NCBI GenBank assembly: GCA_035531115.1
Contig: DATKTP010000172.1
Location: 18,965-82,964 of the forward strand
Direction of reading: 5' to 3'
Length of the DNA: 64,000 bases
DNA from: Candidatus Deferrimicrobium sp.
GTDB lineage: Archaea; Asgardarchaeota; Lokiarchaeia; Helarchaeales; HEL-GB-A
The translations under genes were made by a program, and so were the position numbers. A model generated the notes under the pieces. It saw nothing but the letters and a program-made list of their open reading frames with translations. It searched no databases and was not told the origin of the DNA. Positions 3,949 through 48,740 of the stretch are shown in pieces; position 1 is the first letter of the stretch, and the number at the start of each line of letters is the position of its first letter.

Positions 3949-5844
3949 ATGGATCAGCCAATAAATTCAAAAGAAGAGAAGAAAAAAGTAGAAAAAGCCA
4001 CCGAACGCATAGAAAAACGGTTAAAAGAAGAAAAAAAATCATATCTTAAATTAAGTATATTTGTTGTTATTATTGTTGATTTCTTAATATTTACAAGTGT
4101 ATTATTTCTTACTCAAAGCCCTTTTGCAATTGTCTTAGTGTATGGTTTTGTAATAATCACAACGTTAATAGCACTTATACCTGTAATGATCGAAGAATAC
4201 GAAAGAGTAGGACGGAAGCCTCCCGCTCTTGCCCGTCTTTTCAATTATTTTCTTAAAAAAGTACTTCCTATAGATCGGACTGTTATGCGAACAGGTCCTT
4301 CTGTTCTCCTAAGCTACATATTTCTCCTTACTATCGGAGGATTTCTTACTATAGGTATATATATTTTCGCTGATTTTATTACTCAGAATCCTAATATTTA
4401 TGATTATTTAATTAGCTCATCTGATCCAACCCAATTTGGATTCTTTAGTTTCGTTCAAAATTCAACAGCTAATTCATTCATACCCTCTATTCTTTGGTAT
4501 CTAATTATTTTTATACCCGTAATTTTCTGCTGCTTATTCTTAATAGCATCTGTTTATTATCGCAACACAGAGCCTTCAAAACTACTTAGTGTTGTTATTT
4601 TTTCTCCTGTTATGGTACTCTTGCCTTTAATTTTAAATCTCTCTTCTATTACTAGTCCTGCCCTAGTGATTTCCCTTATATTTATTGGAGGCTGGATTGT
4701 TACACTCTTAGTTTGGTATCGATTTACAAAGAGATCTGCTTTAATGTGCCTATCAATTTTATTTGCTCAGGTACTTGCATCTTTTATGATTTTATATGGT
4801 TTCATTTTTTATGAGGTCCGGGATACTTCCCATTATACTTCGAATTCCATTAATATTTCTTCATATTATAACCCGTTATTCCTTTTACTTTGGTTTGGAA
4901 TTCTTGTTTTCATACCACTTATTATAAAGGCTTTTGATCTTTTTTGGAAAGGGAAACTGAGGATCCTTGGCGTATTATTTTCAATAGGAGCGGCGGTTAT
5001 ATTCCAGTTCTATTTTTTCAATCTATTCAGTACTTCTGTATACGATGCATATCTACCTTGGGGCAATTTGGATGCCGCTGAAATTTTTGTGGGATCTGGG
5101 TTTTTCTTCTTTTATATCTATTTAATCCTTATACCCCTCTTTTTTATATTCGGCTATTTCCAAATTGGGATTGCTCGATGGCTCTATCGTTCTTTTCGAA
5201 ATTTTGGACATAAAAAGAATCATCCGAATGCTTTTCGAATTCTTGGAAGTTTATTTGCCACTTTATTCATTGTAGGTATTGTATTTGTCTATTATTTCTT
5301 CCTTTATAGTTCGGAGGATTATCAAAATATGTTTGCTCATATTACTTCTCTCTATAATGGGCAAATTATTCGATATTTGACGTTAGATCCTGCGGTGGTT
5401 CCGACCTTAATTTCGATAAAAAGCTATGCAGAATTATTCAATGTGTCTTCACTCGCAATCACGGTTGGGTTATTTGCATATTCTTCATACCGATCTGCTT
5501 ATAATTTTGCCCTCTCAACTGATAAAATCGAAGACCCAGATATTAAACGCTTCGGCGTTTTTAATTTTGTCATTTTTACCAGCCCTCCTGCTCGGAAAAC
5601 TCGCGTGATCTTCGGAATTTCTTTAATTTTTCTTTTTCTCGGAGTTCTAGCAATCTTCGCCTTTTTAAAAATACATACGGTCTTATTCAAGGACTTGATA
5701 GCATTTAATCAGGTACCCCCCAGTCTTATCATCTTCGCAAGCTTCGATGCCCTGAAACTCGGTGTCTCCATAATTGGTATGTTCGTTGCAATTGTGATTT
5801 TCTTCTTTATTCTCTCTAAAAGAAGAAAATTGCATAAAATTTAG
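3949..5844 (+). CDS. large polytopic membrane protein, unknown function
   Basis: 631 aa, more than 12 hydrophobic segments, K/E-rich N-terminus, no recognisable catalytic motif. Confidence 0.55.
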   Translation: MDQPINSKEEKKKVEKATERIEKRLKEEKKSYLKLSIFVVIIVDFLIFTSVLFLTQSPFAIVLVYGFVIITTLIALIPVMIEEYERVGRKPPALARLFNYFLKKVLPIDRTVMRTGPSVLLSYIFLLTIGGFLTIGIYIFADFITQNPNIYDYLISSSDPTQFGFFSFVQNSTANSFIPSILWYLIIFIPVIFCCLFLIASVYYRNTEPSKLLSVVIFSPVMVLLPLILNLSSITSPALVISLIFIGGWIVTLLVWYRFTKRSALMCLSILFAQVLASFMILYGFIFYEVRDTSHYTSNSINISSYYNPLFLLLWFGILVFIPLIIKAFDLFWKGKLRILGVLFSIGAAVIFQFYFFNLFSTSVYDAYLPWGNLDAAEIFVGSGFFFFYIYLILIPLFFIFGYFQIGIARWLYRSFRNFGHKKNHPNAFRILGSLFATLFIVGIVFVYYFFLYSSEDYQNMFAHITSLYNGQIIRYLTLDPAVVPTLISIKSYAELFNVSSLAITVGLFAYSSYRSAYNFALSTDKIEDPDIKRFGVFNFVIFTSPPARKTRVIFGISLIFLFLGVLAIFAFLKIHTVLFKDLIAFNQVPPSLIIFASFDALKLGVSIIGMFVAIVIFFFILSKRRKLHKI

Positions 5845-8033: not shown

Positions 8034-8191
8034 ATCTTTCACCAAAAAACAGCCACCCAGAATACTTTCGGGTATCTCTCTAGAAACGCAGTAGTCGGTT
8101 AAACGGACACACATCGACGCATAGTTTTTAAAATGCGCAATCGAACGTTCTTCTATATAATTTGAAATAACATATACAATGGGCAAATTGG

Positions 8192-10438
8192 GTGGCTCTG
8201 GACTTGGACGCTTGGTTGTTGGATTTGAATGTGGAAGGCGATCGAATTGCACTATGGCTAAAACATCCGACAAAAGTGATCCGTAAATTAATCGAGTACA
8301 AGCCCTCGTTTTACGTTGTGCCTCAAAGGAAGGCATTACATGAAACAAAACAGGTTTTAGAATCGCATCCCGATATAGATCGCGTAGAAATTGTTCAGCG
8401 ATTTCATCCTATTCAGTCTCATGAAAAACGTCCTGTTTTACTAATCACCTGCGACCGATTATCAACGTTCGCTCGTACTTGGCATGATATCGAAAATTTA
8501 GAAAAAGTAGAAGTATGTAATGTCGATTTTCCACTGGAACAAAAGTGGCTCTACGAAACGGGCTTCTTTCCCATGGCGAAACTCAAATATACTGCTGGTG
8601 ATACCCTCAGTGCGTTGGAACTATGTGACAGCCAAGAGGCAATTCACTATGAAATTCCTGACTTGACACGTGTGAAACTTGAAGTTGGCATCAAAACGCA
8701 GTACGCCGTCGCCCGCCCTCAAGATTCGTTAAGCTGGATCCGGCTTCATAACGGCGAGGAAATCCTGCTCGATAAAATGAACGAACACGACATGATCCTT
8801 GAATTAATAAAAACCGTCCACGACTTGGATCCTGATATTATTGAAACCGATAACGGAGATAATTTTCTGTTTCCCTATTTGATCACCCGCGCTTCGAAAT
8901 ATGCCCTCTTAAATACCATCACATTCTCCCGCGATGGCATTCCGCTCCATAAATGCCTTCAACAATTTCACGGATCGGGCTCCTATTTCTCATATGGCGT
9001 CATGTATTACCGCCCTTCTCGTCAGGTTTGTCTGCATGGGCGCATTCACGTTGATATCGGAAGTGGCACACATGCCTTTCCCTTGCAGGGGCTTCCGGGG
9101 ATGGTCGAGGTCGCCCGCGTAACGCTTTCGCCCCTTCAGAAAGTTTCGCGGATCACGATTGGGCAGGCGATGTCCTCTATGCAATTTTATAAAGCACACC
9201 AGTTGGGTCTTCTCATCCCTCTAAGCAAAACGAATACCGCTGAGTATTTCAAATCTGGATTGAAGATGTTGGAAAGTGATCGAGGTGGGTTTGTTTATTC
9301 TCCCATCGTTGGGTTCTTTGAAAAGGTAGCTGAAACTGATTTCGCGTCCATGTATCCCAGCATCATGCTTACCCGGAACATCTCCCCCGAAACCATCCTG
9401 TGTTCCTGCAAGGATTCGCCCCTCCAAGTCCCCGAATTAGGTTACAATGTGTGCAACAGGCGAATTGGGCTTATTCCCCAAGCTTTGGAACTCATCTTAA
9501 CCAAGCGGAAGACCTACAAATTACTCGCAAAAGCTGGTTCCGACAAGGAACGCTATTCTAGCATGGAGAAAGCGCTGAAGTGGATATTAGTAACTTGCTT
9601 TGGTTATACAGGCTACCGCAATGCTCGCTTTGGGCGGATCGAAGCCCACGAATCGGTAACTGCATGGGCCCGGAAAATATTGCTGGAAGCCGCTCAAATT
9701 GCGGAAGGATTTGGGTTAGAAGTCATTCATGGGATCGTCGATTCTCTGTGGCTGAGTGGATCCGAGAATGAGCACATTTATGAACAATTTTGCGAGGCGG
9801 TAACCGCGGCAACTGAGATCGAAATGCAGTCCAAAGGGATCTACAAGTGGGTAGTGTTTCTTCCAACAAAAGCATCCCCTGCCGTGGGCGCCCTGACGCA
9901 TTATTATGGCGTTTTCCGTGATGGGACCATTAAGGTTCGTGGGCTCGAATTGCGGCGACACGACACGCCCCTTTTAATAAAACAGGCGCAAGATGAAATA
10001 ATGGGACTTCTAGCAAAAGCGAATAACTGGTATCAATTCCAGAAGTTGCTACCACACGCCCAGCGAACTTTACAGCAGTACATCGACCGCGTTATGCACG
10101 GAGATGTCGCCCTTTCCGATCTACTTGTCACAATGCGAATTTCCCGCCACCCCGAAGCATATAAGAATTATTCACGCCAAGCTATTGCAGCGTGGCAAGC
10201 GAAACGATTAGGTATGGAACTCCAGCCCGGGCAAATGGTGCACTACCTTATTACCAATGCCCGCGCCAAGCGCCCCCAAGAACGGGTTCTCATTGCCCAG
10301 CTACTTGATCGAACCACCCCGCGTTATGATCGCGATACATATCGTAAACTCTTGGACCGGATGTTTGAAAATATGTTGCTCTTTATGCCACTGCAGAAGC
10401 GAAAGTCGTTGTTATTCAGAAATAAGTGTTTGGTTTAA
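8192..10438 (+). CDS. family-B DNA polymerase homologue with substituted exonuclease and polymerase active-site residues (PolB2-like, probably inactive)
   Basis: N-term like PolB; Exo II NGDNFLFPYL (D->L); motif A DFASMYPSIM; motif B KWILVTCFGYTGY; motif C HGIVDS instead of YGDTDS; no FDIET. Confidence 0.7.
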   Translation: MALDLDAWLLDLNVEGDRIALWLKHPTKVIRKLIEYKPSFYVVPQRKALHETKQVLESHPDIDRVEIVQRFHPIQSHEKRPVLLITCDRLSTFARTWHDIENLEKVEVCNVDFPLEQKWLYETGFFPMAKLKYTAGDTLSALELCDSQEAIHYEIPDLTRVKLEVGIKTQYAVARPQDSLSWIRLHNGEEILLDKMNEHDMILELIKTVHDLDPDIIETDNGDNFLFPYLITRASKYALLNTITFSRDGIPLHKCLQQFHGSGSYFSYGVMYYRPSRQVCLHGRIHVDIGSGTHAFPLQGLPGMVEVARVTLSPLQKVSRITIGQAMSSMQFYKAHQLGLLIPLSKTNTAEYFKSGLKMLESDRGGFVYSPIVGFFEKVAETDFASMYPSIMLTRNISPETILCSCKDSPLQVPELGYNVCNRRIGLIPQALELILTKRKTYKLLAKAGSDKERYSSMEKALKWILVTCFGYTGYRNARFGRIEAHESVTAWARKILLEAAQIAEGFGLEVIHGIVDSLWLSGSENEHIYEQFCEAVTAATEIEMQSKGIYKWVVFLPTKASPAVGALTHYYGVFRDGTIKVRGLELRRHDTPLLIKQAQDEIMGLLAKANNWYQFQKLLPHAQRTLQQYIDRVMHGDVALSDLLVTMRISRHPEAYKNYSRQAIAAWQAKRLGMELQPGQMVHYLITNARAKRPQERVLIAQLLDRTTPRYDRDTYRKLLDRMFENMLLFMPLQKRKSLLFRNKCLV

Positions 10439-10915
10439 GGCAGGTGCGCTTTTCTCATTCAAGCTTAACGCGTAATAGGCTTGTATAATTCCACAGATGA
10501 TTGTGATATAAAGGATAAATTTTAATGGAAAAAAATTAACCACGATCCCCGTCAGTCCAAAGATGATCCAAAAAATTCCACCAAAGAAATGTAATAATGC
10601 ACTTGCCATAATGAAACATGGCACTCCCAGATTAAAAATAAAGATATCTATCTTAAATTGGAGTTGTTCAGGCCTCCCTTTCATTATATATTTAAGTAAA
10701 TAATAAAAAAAGCCCCAAATCAAGAAAAATAGTAAAAATTCTTGTAAAATATAGATGCTTAATCCTTGCCAAATACCATATTGTTCCATTAATTGCTGGA
10801 TTACTAAATTTCCTTCATCACTAATTTCATTTATGAAAATGTATGTCGCTATTACATCAAAAAAGGTCATAATTATATAGATACCAATCCAAAATCGCAT
10901 AGATTTGAGATGCAT
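10412..10915 (-). CDS. small integral membrane protein, unknown
   Basis: 167 aa, 4-5 TM segments. Confidence 0.4.
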   Translation of the reverse strand: MHLKSMRFWIGIYIIMTFFDVIATYIFINEISDEGNLVIQQLMEQYGIWQGLSIYILQEFLLFFLIWGFFYYLLKYIMKGRPEQLQFKIDIFIFNLGVPCFIMASALLHFFGGIFWIIFGLTGIVVNFFPLKFILYITIICGIIQAYYALSLNEKSAPALNQTLISE

Positions 10916-17950: not shown

Positions 17951-18766
17951 TCAGGCCACCTTTTTACTCATAAAATCCGTTAAAGTTCGTTGCATTTTAA
18001 TTTCATGATAAGGAAGTCTCATATTTCTTTTAAATTCATTTGCATCTTGAGGTGAAAACCCTCTAAAATGATTGTTGAAGTTCACCAACGCTTCATGAAC
18101 CTCTGGGGATCGTTCAAAGCTGTTCAATTTCCGCTTCACTTCTTCCAGAATCTGATCTTGAGCACGTTGAATTCGGTTAAACTCCGTTAATTCACGATCT
18201 CCAACAAGCCTAATATAATAGGTACTTTGATTCGGTAAATAAATTGGCTGCACGCCTTCTTTATAATTGGTTACTAGCACAACATGCGATCCGTCTATAA
18301 AAGTAGTTAGGATCTCTGGATCAAACCAAGCAATATCGCGAAATTCTAGAAAAAGTGGTTTTTCTGTTGGTATTTCTTCTAATATTTTGGTTAAATATTT
18401 ATAATTCGCTTCAGAATATTTGAACCTAGGAGGGAATTGTAATAAATATCCTCTAATTTTAGGTTCAAGAACTTCTAATCGTGTGAAAAAGGATTCTATT
18501 AACGCTGATTTTTGAGTTCCCCCTTTCTCATGCGTAATTTTTTGCCATACTTTGACCGAAAACCGAAAACTCTCTGGAGTGCTACTCATCCATTGTCTGA
18601 CTACATTTTCGGCTGGGAGATTATAGAAAGTTGAATTAATCTCGGTAAAATCGAAGAATTTAGCATAATATGATAAGAAATGATCTTTTTTTAAGGTTTT
18701 TGGATAGAATGGGCCAATCCAATCGTTATAAGACCAGCCAGCACACCCAACTATGATTTTTAGCAT
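17951..18766 (-). CDS. DUF72 (UPF0759, YecE-like) family protein
   Basis: GCAGWSYNDW...FYP...YYAKFFDFTEINSTFY family pattern. Confidence 0.65.
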   Translation of the reverse strand: MLKIIVGCAGWSYNDWIGPFYPKTLKKDHFLSYYAKFFDFTEINSTFYNLPAENVVRQWMSSTPESFRFSVKVWQKITHEKGGTQKSALIESFFTRLEVLEPKIRGYLLQFPPRFKYSEANYKYLTKILEEIPTEKPLFLEFRDIAWFDPEILTTFIDGSHVVLVTNYKEGVQPIYLPNQSTYYIRLVGDRELTEFNRIQRAQDQILEEVKRKLNSFERSPEVHEALVNFNNHFRGFSPQDANEFKRNMRLPYHEIKMQRTLTDFMSKKVA

Positions 18767-18795: not shown

Positions 18796-20502
18796 TTATT
18801 TAATATTAATTTTTTTTAAAAGGGCATTGAGTGGTAGGGTATTTAACACCTGTTGCTTTTCCAACCATCCGCGCCGTGCGACGGAAACGCCCAATTCCAT
18901 AAATTGTAGATGCTCAACGGAGTGGGAATCGGTTCCAATAGATAACAGGATTCCTTGTTGGCTGGCTTCCCGACAATTAACGTCCGATAAATCCAATCGA
19001 GGTGGATATGAATTAATCTCAAGAATTTTCCCATGTTTTCTTGCTTCTTCAAATATCTCAACTAAGTCAATATCGGATCCCGGACGTTTATTTAAAAGAC
19101 GACCCGTTGGATGTCCAAGAATCGTCAAATATCTATTAGATAATGCATGAGTAACCCGATCAGTTATTTCTTTCCTCGGCATTTTTAGTTTTGAATGAAC
19201 TGACCCAATTACAATATCGAGCTGTTTAAGAACCTCTTCCGATAACTCTAAATTTCCTTCAAGATCAATATTAATTTCAGCTCCTACAAAAACTCGAATA
19301 CCTTTTTCCTGTTTATTCAACTCATGAATATGTGAAATCTGCTCTTGAAGCTTTGTCTCATCAACCGCATTTGCAACAGCTAATGATCCTACATGATCGG
19401 TGATTGCAATGTACTCATATCCTCTTTTTTTAGCGGCTTCAATCATTTCCTCAATACTATTGGCTCCATCACTGTAATTGCTATGCATATGAAGATCTCC
19501 CTTAATATCCGCTACCTCAATTAAATGCGGCAGCGTATGGTTTTGTGCAGCCAAAATTTCTCCGCGATCTTCACGAAGCTCAGGGGGCATCCATTCCATA
19601 CCTAAAACTTTGTAAATTTCTTCCTCGGTCTTTCCTGCTACCTTCTCGTCAGTATCTTTTAAAAATAATCCATATTCATTGAGTTTATATCCCATTTGTG
19701 AGGCTATTGTGCGGAGCACTACATTATGTTCTTTCGAGCCTGTAAAATATTGTAATGCTGCTCCAAAACTATCATCTTCTACTACTCGCAGATCAACTTG
19801 GATATCTTTTTTCACGATCACTGTCGATTTCGTTGGTCCTTTTAGAGAAACTTCTTTAATCATTTCCAAAGACGTAAATACCTGCATAACTTTCTCTGAT
19901 TTATCTGAAGTAACTAATATATCTATATCGCGGATTGTATCTTTCTTTCTCCGTATGGAACCTGCCACGCTAATTTGTTTAACCTCTTTCAATTCTTTCA
20001 ATTTCTTGATTATTTCATCTGCAATAGGCAGAATTGTACCAAGTAGGGTCCGCTGCGGTTTTTTTATATTTTTAATGTTTTTGAGAATCGTCAGTTCGGT
20101 CTTGGGGCCAATTCCTTTAATTCTTTGGATTCGGTGCGATTGAGCTGCCTTTTCCAGATCATCAAGGCTTTTCAAGTGTAACGAATCATACAACAGTTTC
20201 GCAGTCTTGGGACCGATTTCTGGAATTTGAATCATTTTCAATAATAAGGGCGGTATCTGTTTTTTTAATTCCTCATAATATTCTAACTTTCCAGTCGTTA
20301 CTAGTTCTTTTATTTTCTCTTCAAGCGCTTTTCCTATTCCCGGTAATTTCTCTTTTCCCAAAACTTCTGCAATATTTTGACTTAAGCTCTCAATCGTCCG
20401 AGCTGCACGGCGATATGCTAAAAACTTCCATTGAATCTCTCCCTGAATCTCAAGGAGCTCCGAAATCTCATATAATATATCTACAATCTCTTGATTTCGC
20501 AT
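18796..20502 (-). CDS. polX: DNA polymerase X family with C-terminal PHP domain
   Basis: Pol-beta-like N-terminus (HhH, GSIRRKKDTIRDIDILV) plus PHP HMHSNYSDG. Confidence 0.85.
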   Translation of the reverse strand: MRNQEIVDILYEISELLEIQGEIQWKFLAYRRAARTIESLSQNIAEVLGKEKLPGIGKALEEKIKELVTTGKLEYYEELKKQIPPLLLKMIQIPEIGPKTAKLLYDSLHLKSLDDLEKAAQSHRIQRIKGIGPKTELTILKNIKNIKKPQRTLLGTILPIADEIIKKLKELKEVKQISVAGSIRRKKDTIRDIDILVTSDKSEKVMQVFTSLEMIKEVSLKGPTKSTVIVKKDIQVDLRVVEDDSFGAALQYFTGSKEHNVVLRTIASQMGYKLNEYGLFLKDTDEKVAGKTEEEIYKVLGMEWMPPELREDRGEILAAQNHTLPHLIEVADIKGDLHMHSNYSDGANSIEEMIEAAKKRGYEYIAITDHVGSLAVANAVDETKLQEQISHIHELNKQEKGIRVFVGAEINIDLEGNLELSEEVLKQLDIVIGSVHSKLKMPRKEITDRVTHALSNRYLTILGHPTGRLLNKRPGSDIDLVEIFEEARKHGKILEINSYPPRLDLSDVNCREASQQGILLSIGTDSHSVEHLQFMELGVSVARRGWLEKQQVLNTLPLNALLKKINIK

Positions 20503-37155: not shown

Positions 37156-38016
37156 TTGTTAATAGATGAGTTAAGTAAGAATTATTGTGATGATACAGTG
37201 ATTAGGGACATTTGGATAGTGGAAAAGGCAGGAGGTCGGTGTCTTTTTCATAGAACTTATGGGCCAATGGGTCTGGATCCTGATTTACTCTCGAGTTACT
37301 TAACTGGGATTAATACCTTTAGCGAGGCAGAACTGGGCGATACCGGTATTGAATGCATTGAAATGGGAAACATGAAATGGGTCTATATAAATTGGGAAAA
37401 TAAATTACTTTTAGTGGCAGCCGCCGATAAATTTGAGGACCCCACTGTATTGCACCATCAGTTAGACGTTGTTTGCCAGCACTTCCTAGACCATTTCAAG
37501 ATTGATAGGGACTTCTTATCTAAATGGTCGGGGAATGTAACCATGTTTTCTAAATTTGGTCCGAATATAGATGAGTTAATTAACGATTGGAAGCAAGTCT
37601 CAAAGGTTACCGATATCGCAAAAAAGATGAATCTCCTTGAGGTATATCAACAGATTTTTCATGCGTTTGCTAAAGTTGTTCCAACGATACGACCCGAAGG
37701 GCGAAAAGAATTAGCTGAGAGAATGGCGGAACTAAAAACAAGTTTTCCCCCTTACTTTGAAAAAGTTACCTATGGAAATGCTGGGTGGGATATCCTTTCA
37801 GCAGATGTAACCGATCCTCGATGCAAGGAATATAAATTAAGAGAGGAATTACAAAATTTATTAAATGCCTTTGTTTCCGAAATGAAATCTATTTTTAAAG
37901 AAGAGTTGTTTTTTGAAATTGCGAAGAAATTAGTTTATCCTAAATTATTATCCGACTGGAGCCGTATTCGAGAACTAGAAATAGATGAAGCGCTACTCCA
38001 AATTTTCTTGATTTAA
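37156..38016 (+). CDS. longin-like (SNARE-like superfamily) domain protein with helical C-terminal region
   Basis: N-term beta-alpha-beta-beta-alpha pattern IWIVEKAGGRCLF / LLSSYLTGINTF / LLLVAAADKFEDP..LHHQLDVVCQHF, comparable to longin/sigma-adaptin YLVLCEAAFPK... Confidence 0.4.
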   Translation: MLIDELSKNYCDDTVIRDIWIVEKAGGRCLFHRTYGPMGLDPDLLSSYLTGINTFSEAELGDTGIECIEMGNMKWVYINWENKLLLVAAADKFEDPTVLHHQLDVVCQHFLDHFKIDRDFLSKWSGNVTMFSKFGPNIDELINDWKQVSKVTDIAKKMNLLEVYQQIFHAFAKVVPTIRPEGRKELAERMAELKTSFPPYFEKVTYGNAGWDILSADVTDPRCKEYKLREELQNLLNAFVSEMKSIFKEELFFEIAKKLVYPKLLSDWSRIRELEIDEALLQIFLI

Positions 38017-38734: not shown

Positions 38735-39568
38735 CTAGAGTAAAATCCTATTAAAATTATCAGTCAGTAGCTCTGCAATCGGACCAATTGAAGAATGTGC
38801 CTCTGTTATTGCATAATAATAGAAGGGGACTGCGCCTTCCCCAAATTCCCCCAGAATATCTGAAATTTGAACTTTTACGCCAGGGTTGGTCATCACGACT
38901 AACTTGGGCTCCAATCCGGGCAGCGCTATGTTATTATAAAGAAGCTCCCCGTCTTGGAGAATGGATCCTTTACGTCCGATGTTACTTAAATAAATCGCAA
39001 TTTCTTCACGAGACATCCCATGCGAAAAGAGAATAGAGTTATCAAATGAAGTGATAAAGCAGGAGTGAACCTCCTCTGGAAACTTTTCCTCTATAAGGTA
39101 GTCTGCCGCTATTCGTAATTGCTCTTTTTTATTGTAAATTATATTTTCTGCAACTGCATCGTTCAATAAACCCTCAATGAATTGCCGCTCTTCATCGGAA
39201 ATATTTGGGACTTTTCCGACGCGGATCATATGTTCATAGCGAAATAATATTTTACTGTATATCCACTGTATTTTGTAATGTACCATTTGGTGAAATTGGT
39301 AGGGATCTGTAAAGCAAAGGACCATATATTCGCCAATAAAACTATAAACTCCGTCTATTCCATAAGGATCATCGGGAAATTCAGTAGGTAGGAACCTAAT
39401 ATAGGAAATTTCCTGTTTATAATTGCTGGCAAAGGTATGGAGTGCTGAAAGAAACCCCGCAATCAAAATGGGATTCCCCTCATGGAAGGCGGAAAGTTTC
39501 TCAGACCACGCATCCAGAAACAACGGAATCCCTGTCTTGCTCTGGATCGCTACGCCAAGTATTGCCAT
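38735..39568 (-). CDS. protein with two longin-like domains
   Basis: ILGVAIQSKTGIPLF / ILIAGFLSALHTFAS / YMVLCFTDPYQFHQMV; second unit FITSFDNSILFS...LVVMTNPG. Confidence 0.4.
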   Translation of the reverse strand: MAILGVAIQSKTGIPLFLDAWSEKLSAFHEGNPILIAGFLSALHTFASNYKQEISYIRFLPTEFPDDPYGIDGVYSFIGEYMVLCFTDPYQFHQMVHYKIQWIYSKILFRYEHMIRVGKVPNISDEERQFIEGLLNDAVAENIIYNKKEQLRIAADYLIEEKFPEEVHSCFITSFDNSILFSHGMSREEIAIYLSNIGRKGSILQDGELLYNNIALPGLEPKLVVMTNPGVKVQISDILGEFGEGAVPFYYYAITEAHSSIGPIAELLTDNFNRILL

Positions 39569-44919: not shown

Positions 44920-46338
44920 TTAACTACACTCACTATAATACTTTAAATAATTAGCTAACGCTCGAATCCCCCGATAAAAGGAGGGAAACACGGGAACGTG
45001 AATCTCGTGAAAAGCGTCCCGAAATTTCCGGGATTTCTTCTCCAACGCTAAATTCTCGGACGTATTCAAGAGTTCCCTTAATATAACAATAATGGGAATG
45101 TTATTCTTCTCTTTGTAATTCTTGATTATCCTGAACATCAATTTTAAATCTATGACAAAATCGACAATGAAATCATATATAAGCACTTTAATATTTGGAT
45201 CGCTCATAAACACATCCAATACTTTCTTCTGGTCTCCCATATACATAGGATTGCCTATATCAAGGGGATTATTTATCGAGGTCCCCTCCAGGGGTAATAA
45301 ACTTTTGAGTTCTTCTTTTCCTTCTGATAATTTAGGAATCTTAAGCCCATACTGATTCGCAATATCACTGATCTCGATTCCTATGCCGCCTCCACCCCCG
45401 ATTACCCCGATCTTATTTGTATAATCGATCTTTTTTTCTAAACGTGGTAAATATGTCATCGCTATAGTGGTATCTAATAATTCTTCGAAACTATTTACCA
45501 TTAAGATTTTATTGCGATATTGTTGGAAAAATCCTTTCCAGACTTCGGCTTGCCCGCTCAAAAATCCTGTGTGGGACGTTGCAGCTCGTGCTCCATCTTC
45601 TGTTAACCCACTTTTCCATAATATAAGCGGCTTGCTAATTCCCCCGAGCACTTGTTTCAATTTCTCCATGTTCCTCACTCCCTCTACATATGCTGCTACT
45701 ACTTTGGTCTCCGCGTCGTTATTCAGAAATTCAAGGAAATCCGGGAGATCTAAATCCAACGCGTTTCCATAGGAAATTACTTTGCTAAATCGCAATCCTG
45801 CACTCTGTCCTAAAAGGGTGAAATTTACGGAATGTCCTCCACTTTGAGAGAGCATTGCAACATTTCCAGTTTCTCTCGGAAAATCTCCGCCTGGAAGTAA
45901 GGTGATTCCACCATTTGGATGGTAAATTCCGAAACAATTCGGACCAATAACCCGAACTCCGCACTCCTGTGCAACTTTAGCAGATTCCTCTTCCAATTGC
46001 TTTCCTTCCTCTCCCGTTTCCTTAAATCCTGCCGTCAAGATAATTACTGACTTCGTTTTTCCTTTACATTTCTCAATTTCTGTTGGTACCTGGGTCGCTG
46101 GGACCGTAATATACACTAAATCAATCGGGGCTGGAACATCTTCCAGTTTCCACGAATCTAACCCCTGTATTTTAATTCTTCTTGGATTCACCGGGTATAT
46201 TTTTCCCACATACTGAAAATCTAAGAGCGCTTTTAAAAATAGACTCCCAAATTTGAACGGTTTCGTGGATGCCCCAATAATTGCAATTGATTTCGGATGG
46301 AAAAATGGTTCTAGATTTGGAGACTCCATACATGTCAA
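44920..46338 (-). CDS. acetyl-CoA synthetase (ADP-forming) alpha / CoA-binding domain protein
   Basis: IAIIGASTKPFKFG CoA-binding, succinyl-CoA-synthetase-like ligase-CoA domain. Confidence 0.7.
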   Translation of the reverse strand: MTCMESPNLEPFFHPKSIAIIGASTKPFKFGSLFLKALLDFQYVGKIYPVNPRRIKIQGLDSWKLEDVPAPIDLVYITVPATQVPTEIEKCKGKTKSVIILTAGFKETGEEGKQLEEESAKVAQECGVRVIGPNCFGIYHPNGGITLLPGGDFPRETGNVAMLSQSGGHSVNFTLLGQSAGLRFSKVISYGNALDLDLPDFLEFLNNDAETKVVAAYVEGVRNMEKLKQVLGGISKPLILWKSGLTEDGARAATSHTGFLSGQAEVWKGFFQQYRNKILMVNSFEELLDTTIAMTYLPRLEKKIDYTNKIGVIGGGGGIGIEISDIANQYGLKIPKLSEGKEELKSLLPLEGTSINNPLDIGNPMYMGDQKKVLDVFMSDPNIKVLIYDFIVDFVIDLKLMFRIIKNYKEKNNIPIIVILRELLNTSENLALEKKSRKFRDAFHEIHVPVFPSFYRGIRALANYLKYYSECS

Positions 46339-46404
46339 TCTCTATCTGGAAATTAAAATTATTCTGAAAATATTGAAAATTGAAATTATCTATTCACAAG
46401 AAGG

Positions 46405-48138: not shown

Positions 48139-48423
48139 TTAGATATAGCTATCAAATTGGCTAGGAATTTTTTTTTCATCAAGCCATTCACGGAACTCAC
48201 TGTCCGTCTTAAATCGTTCTTTAATGAGCCATAATAACACAGCAGGGACATTTTCTGATTTCACCGTCAGCCAATATTCATAATCACTATCGCCCCAATA
48301 TTTCTCAACGAAATCGCCAATATCATAGCCTTCCAATACAAGATTCCCTTCGTCAGTTATATACGCTTCCAGAGTTGAATGACTTGTATCCGTTTCTTTA
48401 TCGTATATCGTAATGCGTTTCAT
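48139..48423 (-). CDS. small acidic protein, tandem paralogue 1
   Basis: 94 aa; about 80% identical to the adjacent ORF. Confidence 0.5.
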   Translation of the reverse strand: MKRITIYDKETDTSHSTLEAYITDEGNLVLEGYDIGDFVEKYWGDSDYEYWLTVKSENVPAVLLWLIKERFKTDSEFREWLDEKKIPSQFDSYI

Positions 48424-48455: not shown

Positions 48456-48740
48456 CTAAATATAATTATCAAATTGGCTGGGAATTTTTTTTGCATCGAG
48501 CCAGTTCCGAAACTCACTATCCGTCTTAAATCGTTCTTGAATGAGCCATAATAACACGGCAGGGACGTGTTCTGCCTTCACCCTCAGCCAATATTCGTAA
48601 TCACTATCGCCCCAATATTCTTTAACGAAATCGCCAATATCATAGCCCTCCAATACAAGATCCCCTTGGTCATCTATACAGGCTTCCAAGGTTGAATGAC
48701 TACTCTCTGTGCGTATATCGTATATTGTAATGCGTTTCAT
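48456..48740 (-). CDS. small acidic protein, tandem paralogue 2
   Basis: 94 aa; MKRITIYD...GYDIGDFV..YWGDSDYEYWL. Confidence 0.5.
   Translation of the reverse strand: MKRITIYDIRTESSHSTLEACIDDQGDLVLEGYDIGDFVKEYWGDSDYEYWLRVKAEHVPAVLLWLIQERFKTDSEFRNWLDAKKIPSQFDNYI

Follow-up and report, generated by a model that had tools for sequence, protein, structure and literature searches.

The window analysed here is a 64,000-nucleotide stretch of contig DATKTP010000172.1 (assembly GCA_035531115.1) from an Asgard, Helarchaeota-like archaeon, and it carries polB2, a well-supported member of the PolB2-type (Dpo2 group) family-B DNA polymerases. The product is most likely a working translesion polymerase that lacks proofreading. 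It probably acts together with PPB2 and with iRadA, an inactive RadA paralogue, and is probably expressed under the control of a promoter element resembling the Sulfolobales element DDRE. On this account, the appropriate annotation for PolB2 genes is that of probable active translesion polymerases without proofreading, not of dead enzymes. Taken alone, polB2 adds one more ordinary member to a known family, and public databases already contain the identical protein; the regulatory element upstream of it is the more interesting lead.

The polB2 open reading frame (ORF) is uninterrupted, starts with GTG, and encodes 748 amino acids (aa). An identical protein is found on three independently assembled contigs (ENA, 110,726 bp; Logan; the NCBI record), and the gene is therefore not an assembly artefact; the misassembled region that an earlier note on this DNA had allowed for is not seen. 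The product matches the Pfam families DNA_pol_B (PF00136, 7e-29) and DNA_pol_B_exo1 (PF03104), the best NCBIfam model is NF004416, and the closest solved structures by sequence are those of Thermococcales PolB (1e-46 with the single sequence, 1e-76 with the family profile; Pfu and KOD). Comparison by phmmer yields 162 bits for Pfu PolB3 and 105 bits for Sso PolB1, and tblastn against haloarchaeal plasmid PolB2 yields 285-315 bits (30-32% identity over ∼90% of the query, E 1e-76 to 1e-89). Judged by bit scores and identity, the product is nearer to verified haloarchaeal PolB2 than to PolB1 or PolB3. The haloarchaeal matches, found by searching annotated plasmids and labeled there as 'type B DNA-directed DNA polymerase', lie directly 3' of a RadA-like gene and a gene of ∼105-113 aa with the N-terminus (M/V)GRTNPTF, that is, in iRadA-PPB2-PolB2 operons. 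The N-terminus reported for PPB2 is MGRT (PMC11791011).

The hallmarks of PolB2 are the change of the PolC motif from YxDTD to HxxxD (PMC8764526), the loss of the exonuclease (Exo) site, the D(K/R) motif, and an operon with iRadA and PPB2 (PMC11791011). The window protein displays HxxxD, Exo-site loss, and D(K/R), and its gene does not form an operon with iRadA or PPB2. The characters common to the query and verified PolB2 include HGIVDS (VHGIVDS in haloarchaea), A(L/I)KWILVxCFGY, D(R/K)GGF (ADRGGF in haloarchaea), a nine-residue insertion before the KxY-like motif, and a deletion that removes Exo III. Membership is well supported because these motifs are shared with operon-verified haloarchaeal PolB2 and because sister lineages harbor the canonical partners. 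The earlier note had likewise placed the gene among PolB2-type paralogues, an assignment upheld by the motif, similarity, and operon-relative comparisons.

The catalytic motifs were compared in a MAFFT alignment of the query, 20 relatives, two operon-verified haloarchaeal PolB2 proteins, and the Pfu polymerase. The Pfu sequence was taken from HMMER output except for residues 240-322, a segment that has the 83 residues required by the numbering and with which all motifs fall at textbook positions. The motifs quoted in the earlier note are located where it placed them: NGDNFLFPYL at aa 221-230, DFASMYPSIM at 383-392, KWILVTCFGYTGY at 463-475, and HGIVDS at 513-518. In family-B structures, the motif-A aspartate and the second motif-C aspartate are the two metal ligands. 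Among the catalytic aspartates of the polymerase site, only the first, non-metal-binding residue of motif C is replaced in the window protein (Pfu D541 aligns with Ile515). The view that the catalytic residues of the polymerase site had been substituted is thus correct for this aspartate and incorrect for the metal ligands D383 and D517, both of which are kept. D383, D517, and the motif-B lysine K463 are invariant in 21 relatives (39-77% identity; Asgard archaea and Bathyarchaeia) and in the two haloarchaeal PolB2 proteins. H513-G-I-V-D517 is invariant in the same 21 relatives and identical in the operon-verified haloarchaeal proteins, and in motif A, S386 and P389 are invariant in the family alignment along with D383. 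Motif B reads K463-W-I-L-V467-T-C-F470-G in place of the canonical KxxxNSxYG (Asn to Val, Tyr to Phe), and the lysine of the KxY motif is lost. An invariant pair of metal-ligand aspartates with a dNTP-binding lysine is the sequence pattern expected of a working active site.

Motif B is also the site of an intein in one relative. P0004, which is 77% identical, has an intein of ∼526 aa with LAGLIDADG and splicing domains between T468 and C469 (ALKWILVT-C...HN-CFGYTGY, with hyphens at the splice junctions), the classic PolB 'region III' site. The window gene has the same Cys469 without an intein.

The 3'-5' exonuclease site, as judged from the alignments, is destroyed by replacement of the Exo II aspartate with leucine, deletion of Exo III, and distortion of Exo I. 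HMMER pairs Pfu D141-I-E143 with the nearly invariant D146-S-Q-E149, in which the aspartate is kept (D146 in at least 90% of the family) and the glutamate is out of register by one residue; the Exo I motif FDIET, reported as absent in the earlier note, is therefore not simply missing. Its statement that the Exo II aspartate is a leucine is borne out, with Pfu D215 aligned to Leu226. The largest lesion, the Exo III deletion, had been missed. The flanking Pfu residues 239 and 323 correspond to query residues 251 and 296, such that the 83 residues of Pfu 240-322 face 44 query residues (252-295). With GRIHFD of Pfu anchored on GRIHVD of the query (283-288), the deletion covers ∼55 residues, including Y311 and D315 of Exo III. 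A global MAFFT placement of GRIHVD opposite Pfu Exo III was dropped in favor of this anchor. At most one of the four exonuclease carboxylates survives in the query, and proofreading would therefore be gone.

An AlphaFold2 model built from a 21-sequence alignment (pLDDT 86.4, pTM 0.84) aligns over its full length to Thermococcales PolB in Foldseek (TM 0.75-0.76, ∼820 columns, ∼20% identity), and the best matches are DNA-bound structures in the replicative state. We know of no solved PolB2 structure. The sole internal stretch of low confidence spans residues ∼341-370 and includes the loop that precedes the D(K/R) motif (aa 341-362; pLDDT 52-65, with residues 348-353 below 50). In published models, the D(K/R) motif contacts the N-terminal arm of PPB2 and the preceding beta-alpha loop binds iRadA (PMC11791011). 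Conservation of loop 341-362 within the clade is 0.80 vs 0.73 for the whole protein, and the spacing from D363-R364 to motif C is 152 residues vs 148 in Dpo2 of Sulfolobus islandicus (Sis Dpo2). That the loop is conserved although it is of low confidence on its own argues for a binding partner that still exists. The C-terminus, ...QKRKSLLFRNKCLV, is not a canonical PCNA-binding motif, by inspection only.

The window belongs to a clade of seven polB2 loci (the window, L003, L010, and L093-L096); L008 is a 7.7-kb leftward extension of the window contig. An alignment of the 200 nucleotides (nt) upstream of polB2 was made for the window, L003, and L010, whose upstream genes differ, and was then extended to all seven loci. 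Block 1, in the form AATACTTTC-N4-ATCTC(T/C)C, is present in seven out of seven loci despite the differing upstream genes, and its pattern ATANTTTCNNNNWHCTC occurs once in the window where 0.13 occurrences are expected. The block 2 pattern TTTWWWWTGCGCAA also occurs once (0.03 expected), and across 96 loci it is found only 5' of the window-clade polB2 genes and 32 nt 5' of a solo PPB2 gene (L025, Hel_GB_B). Measured from the start of block 1, the middle block TTAAACGGAC is ∼38 nt away; it may represent a weak TATA-like element. These blocks span ∼90 bp and remain attached to polB2 regardless of what separates it from the upstream gene for CDP-archaeol synthase (CarS). The CarS-polB2 intergenic region is 158 bp in the window (8034-8191), contains a 1.8-kb insert with a 95-aa ORF in L003 (8192-10000), and contains an inserted HEPN/nucleotidyltransferase pair in L010 (8390-10000). 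The window contains four further copies of the 9-mer AATACTTTC, all of them within genes and taken as chance occurrences; the strict element is not found upstream of PolX/DUF72 or any other window gene.

Elements of the same kind accompany the scattered partner genes of other Helarchaeota. In L025, the solo PPB2 gene is preceded by an exact block 2 and a block-1-like element, with the 64-bp spacing unchanged. In L004 and L013, where iRadA is unlinked, the identical 9-mer AATACTTTC followed by ATCTC precedes this gene by ∼150-185 nt. The L013 locus has two tandem DDRE-like copies upstream of iRadA at 9097-9160 (AATACTTTC...ATCTCCC and AATATTTTC...ATCTCTC).

DDRE (AATAGTTTCRGWDTACTCWS, with 5'-ANTTTC-3') is the binding site of Orc1-2 in S. 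islandicus (PMC6061795), and ANTTTC is discussed in the literature consulted for Sulfolobales only. Block 1 (AATACTTTCGGGTATCTCTC) matches 16 of the 20 positions of this consensus. In 42 archaeal PolB2 operons, which are mostly from Thermoplasmatota and include many closely related loci, AATANTTTC is present in the region upstream of the first gene at 2.80 per kb vs a background of 0.13 (∼21-fold); the enrichment is orientation-specific and does not extend to the reverse complement. Of these operons, 25 have ATACTTTC at a fixed distance of 27-30 nt from a TATA-like box. Bacterial PolB2 operons are without the DDRE-like element. Related elements occur in Hadarchaeota, Methanoperedens, Nitrososphaerota, and one haloarchaeon, which together with Thermoplasmatota and Asgard archaea are among the groups with a DDRE-type element near the PolB2 module. 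A tentative reading, to which we give slightly less than an even chance, is that a DDRE-type element (AATA-N-TTTC, 4 nt, WHCTC; ATANTTTC-N4-WHCTC) could be ancient, pan-archaeal, and tied to the PolB2 module, and that in Helarchaeota, where the operon would have been split, the scattered genes could form one regulon through this element and the TTTWAAAWTGCGCAA block and no longer through operon linkage.

A separate cluster of three ANTTTC-type hexamers (ATAATTTCAATTTTCAATATTTTC) is present on the minus strand of the window at 46355-46395, in a short intergenic region upstream of a CoA-ligase-like gene (44920-46338). The cluster matches 16/20 of the Sulfolobus consensus without the WHCTC half and is probably an AT-rich chance match.

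The arrangement of the partner genes varies across sister lineages: PolB2, iRadA, and PPB2 form a contiguous operon in Bathyarchaeia (L005), and the partners are 2 kb from polB2 in a Loki locus (L012) and 7 kb away in a Helarchaeota locus (L004). PolB2 adjoins PPB2 in 58 out of 80 PPB2 loci. In another Helarchaeota locus (L013), for which the flanks are complete, an iRadA-PPB2 pair is present and PolB2 is absent within 10 kb. The iRadA-PPB2-PolB2 module is thus dispersed in Helarchaeota. A scan of genome contigs with PPB2 revealed mostly Thermoplasmatota and Acidobacteriota, with two Helarchaeota and none from a window-clade assembly.

The composition of polB2 departs from that of the AT-rich genome around it. 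Its GC content at third codon positions (GC3) is 0.50 vs 0.342 +/- 0.049 for the window ORFs, the highest of 61, and ranges between 0.44 and 0.66 in seven out of seven clade members vs a GC of 0.36-0.42 for the rest of each locus. GC3 is also raised in polB2 and iRadA of the AT-rich L004 locus and is not raised in the GC-neutral Bathyarchaeia locus. The excess could be caused by an old transfer with slow amelioration, by recurrent replacement, or by selection.

By analogy with Sulfolobus Dpo2, the product most likely acts as a distributive, non-proofreading polymerase that extends mismatched or lesion-opposed primer ends in translesion synthesis. Two-metal catalysis would be carried out by D383 of motif A and D517 of motif C, with K463 of motif B and the steric-gate residue Y388. 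Residues that in canonical enzymes probe the nascent base pair and the minor groove at the primer are changed, namely the first motif-C aspartate, the motif-B asparagine and tyrosine, and the KxY lysine; the minor-groove-sensing substitutions (motif-B asparagine and tyrosine, KxY lysine) would fit a tolerance of distorted primer termini. The enzyme would probably form a complex with a PPB2 trimer and iRadA through the conserved loop and D363-R364, and would probably be expressed from the conserved promoter with the DDRE-like element AATACTTTC-N4-ATCTCTC. Dpo2 of S. islandicus and S. solfataricus, which has HxxxD with Ile-x-Asp, is a robust polymerase without exonuclease activity that extends mismatched and lesion-opposed ends (PMC8764526). 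Native-host Dpo2 equals the replicase Dpo1 in nucleotide incorporation and is distributive; Dpo2 is accurate on undamaged DNA, poor at insertion opposite lesions, and very efficient in extending mismatched and lesion-containing ends (PMC8764526). Dpo2 is needed for damage-induced mutagenesis (PMC11791011), and transcription of dpo2 is DNA-damage-inducible and Orc1-2-dependent (PMC6061795).

Several observations weigh against this proposal. The NCBIfam PolB2-type models were matched under their curated cut-offs (404 vs 516 bits), and we know of no biochemistry for any Asgard PolB2. Mutants of the first motif-C aspartate in Pol alpha and viral polymerases are strongly less active, according to the studies as they are cited in PMC8764526. 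Four verified operons served to build hidden Markov models (HMMs) of iRadA and PPB2. Every control is recovered by these models (1e-43 to 1e-102), and so is even true RadA (8e-16); they detect neither partner in the window with L008 (72 kb, covering 16 kb upstream and 53 kb downstream of polB2) and none within 10 kb of polB2 in the six other clade loci. Searches of the window by tblastn with haloarchaeal, Helarchaeota, and Bathyarchaeia iRadA and PPB2 gave no match better than E = 0.2, and no MG[RK][TS] ORF is present in any frame of the window. The complex is therefore a putative one in the window lineage. As to the promoter, the strict element is not found upstream of polB2 in other Asgard clades (L004, L011, L012), block 1 is 65 bp from the TATA-like block 2 vs 27-30 nt in Thermoplasmatota, and the window has no Orc1/Cdc6 gene. 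Likeness to the Sulfolobus 20-mer was rejected as stand-alone evidence; matches of at least 16/20 occur four times in the window, and the likeness to the consensus alone is therefore at chance level.

The earlier note regarded the protein as likely a non-catalytic replisome or repair component. On that view, which we consider improbable, it would be a pseudo-enzyme PolB whose sole contribution to a replication or repair complex is structural or regulatory. The first motif-C aspartate is an isoleucine, motif B lacks the canonical asparagine and tyrosine, and the exonuclease site appears dead. An inactivated-polymerase view of PolB2 was reportedly held by Rogozin in 2008. PolB2 was again predicted to be inactive by Makarova in 2014 (PMC4104785). 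However, the metal-ligand aspartates and the dNTP-binding lysine are invariant over a deep divergence, whereas these motifs are lost from PolB modules that are truly inactivated, for example the C-terminal half of Pol epsilon (PMC4104785). The same substitutions are found in Sulfolobus Dpo2, a robust polymerase (PMC8764526) that is required for induced mutagenesis (PMC11791011). A repair role may therefore be kept from the earlier description, and its non-catalytic part is not supported, given the invariant metal ligands and the activity of Sulfolobus Dpo2. At the opposite extreme, the protein can hardly be the main replicative family-B polymerase of the organism, even though it has a full-length PolB fold that best matches the replicative Thermococcales enzymes and no other PolB or PolD is encoded in the window. 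The window is just 64 kb, and the absence of other polymerases there is therefore uninformative; proofreading appears destroyed, the PolB2 signature motifs are present, and PolB2 is reported to be dispensable in Sulfolobus.

A more serious competitor, though still an unlikely one, is a stand-alone PolB2: the clade would have acquired or kept the polymerase only, iRadA and PPB2 would have been lost, and the enzyme would work without them. The control-validated HMM searches are consistent with such a loss, the GC3-rich gene suggests a separate history, and isolated Dpo2 is active in vitro (PMC8764526). No PPB2 database match bears the locus tag of a window-clade metagenome-assembled genome (MAG); MAGs with PolB2 of other clades are missing as well, and the test is weak given MAG incompleteness and missing names. 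Against a loss, D363-R/K364 does not vary, loop 341-362 exceeds the protein average in conservation though it is predicted to be disordered alone, and the partners of other Helarchaeota are also unlinked (>10 kb in L013). The unlinked Helarchaeota partners carry the same promoter elements, and dispersal is therefore favored over loss. The high GC3 of polB2 throughout the clade can also be read as the mark of a recently transferred or mobile-element-borne polymerase gene outside the host's own repair system; the PolB2 phylogeny is reported to include frequent transfer among archaea (PMC11791011), and the haloarchaeal copies are plasmid-borne. We judge a recent transfer to have little chance of being correct, as no integrase, repeats, or tRNA flank polB2 (Rfam and tRNA scans of the window gave no matches), relatives with no more than 71-75% identity in PolB2 retain the housekeeping synteny, and the promoter is conserved along with the gene. 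The conserved synteny rules out a recent insertion, and any transfer is therefore older than the clade.

A working PolB2 translesion polymerase, the preferred reading, can be set beside several known systems. To our knowledge, Dpo2 of Sulfolobus/Saccharolobus islandicus is the only PolB2 characterized both biochemically and genetically. The window protein resembles it in HxxxD with isoleucine for the first aspartate (Sis 401-IID-403; window I515-V-D517), in D(K/R), in the family-B fold, in the lack of an exonuclease active site, and in the AATA-N-TTTC-type promoter element associated with the gene. Sis Dpo2, the smallest PolB2, has lost most of the Exo domain, whereas the window protein keeps a folded Exo-like domain; the Sis gene is in an operon with its partners in Thermoproteota, whereas the window gene is Asgard and has no adjacent partners. 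The operons of haloarchaea, Thermoplasmatota, and Bathyarchaeia (the 'PolB2 mutasome', Timinskas et al. 2025) encode proteins with 30-42% identity over the full length, which agree exactly with the window protein in HGIVDS, ALKWILVxCFGY, and D(R/K)GGF and have in common with it the Exo III deletion and the extra residues ahead of the KxY-like motif. They differ in the usual adjacency of PolB2 and PPB2 (58/80 loci), in contrast with the absence of a partner within at least 10 kb in the window clade. The Thermococcales PolB3 enzymes (Pfu, KOD, 9 degrees N) have the same five-domain architecture (TM up to 0.76), and their motif A, motif-B lysine, and second motif-C aspartate are retained in the window protein; at ∼20% identity, they differ in having proofreading (intact DxE, D215, and YxxxD) and canonical YxDTD, KxxxNSxYG, and KKRY motifs. 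Eukaryotic Pol zeta (Rev3) is also a non-proofreading family-B polymerase that extends mismatched or lesion-opposed termini in a multisubunit complex (PMC8764526, PMC11791011), but it is a functional analogue and not an orthologue, with other accessory subunits and a retained canonical DTD. The predicted window element has the A-N-TTTC, 4 nt, (A/T)(A/C/T)CTC layout of the Sulfolobales DDRE upstream of the same gene family; it differs in position, being 65 bp away from the TATA-like block and at -131 relative to the start codon vs -23 to -55.

The only known archaeal damage-response circuit, Orc1-2/DDRE, has so far been shown only in Sulfolobales, and a DDRE-like element shared across phyla would extend it and would allow damage regulons of uncultured archaea to be predicted from sequence. 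If the regulon is real, an Orc1-2-like damage response would be present in the archaeal lineage closest to eukaryotes. According to one proposal (PMC4104785), the inactive C-terminal half of eukaryotic Pol epsilon derives from PolB2, and an Asgard PolB2 is therefore relevant to that question. The dispersal of the mutasome genes in Helarchaeota and the persistently GC3-rich polB2 merit the attention of specialists.

Features of polB2 and its upstream region, in window coordinates
Feature	Position	Strand	Basis or remark
polB2 gene, 748-aa PolB2-type family-B DNA polymerase	8192..10438	+	Pfam, alignments, AlphaFold, Foldseek
Block 1, AATACTTTC-GGGT-ATCTCTC, DDRE-like, with ANTTTC hexamer, -131 to -112 from GTG	8061..8080	+	
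Middle block, TTAAACGGAC	8099..8108	+	TTAAAC-N-GAC kept in 6/7 clade loci
Block 2, TTTTAAAATGCGCAA, TATA-box-like with TGCGCAA core, -66 from start	8126..8140	+	7/7 clade loci
Exo I remnant, D146-S-Q-E149 replacing canonical DxE	8627..8638	+	Profile alignment to Pfu
Exo II, NGDNFLFPYL, catalytic Asp (Pfu D215) to Leu226	8852..8881	+	Alignments to Pfu
GRIHVD anchor, aa 283-288, Exo III-bearing ∼55 residues missing directly after	9038..9055	+	Alignment to Pfu
Loop aa 341-362 before D(K/R), iRadA-binding beta-alpha element in published models	9212..9277	+	Model pLDDT, PMC11791011
D(K/R) motif, D363-R364	9278..9283	+	D363 invariant, 364 = R/K in 21 relatives and both haloarchaeal PolB2
Motif A, DFASMYPSIM, metal-ligand D383 and steric-gate Tyr388	9338..9367	+	D383 aligned to Pfu D405
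Motif B, ALKWILVTCFGYTGY, K463 kept, Asn to Val467, Tyr to Phe470	9572..9616	+	Family alignment
Motif C, HGIVDS, PolB2 signature HxxxD, first Asp to Ile515, metal-ligand D517 kept	9728..9745	+	Family alignment

The upstream neighbours of polB2 are the genes for glutamate dehydrogenase (GDH) and CarS, and the downstream neighbours are a membrane ORF, a HAD hydrolase gene, and a VapBC pair. The order PALP, 631-aa ORF, GDH, CarS, polB2, ... NTPase ... PolX is kept in the relatives with 71-75% identical PolB2. The 631-aa ORF (3949-5844, plus strand) has no Pfam match and is syntenic with GDH-CarS-polB2 in L003 (623 aa) and L010 (631 aa). The membrane ORF (10412-10915, minus strand; 167 aa, predicted) has no Pfam match, converges on polB2 with a 27-bp 3' overlap, and is found in the same place in L003. 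An apparent operon of a DUF72 gene (17951-18766, minus strand) and a PolX-PHP DNA polymerase gene (18796-20502, minus strand) lies 7.5-10 kb downstream of polB2; L003 shows this arrangement too, and L010 also has PolX. Two DUF72 genes are located ∼8 kb downstream of the PolB2 operon in Bathyarchaeia L005, and DUF72 is reported to be enriched near polB2 (PMC11791011). The PPB2 family (arCOG07300/DUF8156, PF26485) is not among these neighbours.

The contig, k141_2117572 (ENA ERZ27256847), carries the NCBI organism name 'Candidatus Deferrimicrobium sp.', a bacterial genus. The content of the window is Asgard archaeal, with fibrillarin/Nop5, a thermosome, CDP-archaeol synthase, ELP3, and a longin-like protein, and with nearest homologues in Helarchaeota/Promethearchaeota; the contig is probably mis-binned. 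The longin match is weak (37156-38016, plus strand; Fuz_longin_1, E = 5e-4), and the neighbouring ORF (38735-39568, minus strand) has no Pfam match; the two products may be Asgard 'eukaryotic signature' trafficking proteins. Two tandem paralogues of 94 aa each (MKRITIYD...EGYDIGDFV...) are encoded on the minus strand at 48139-48423 and 48456-48740.

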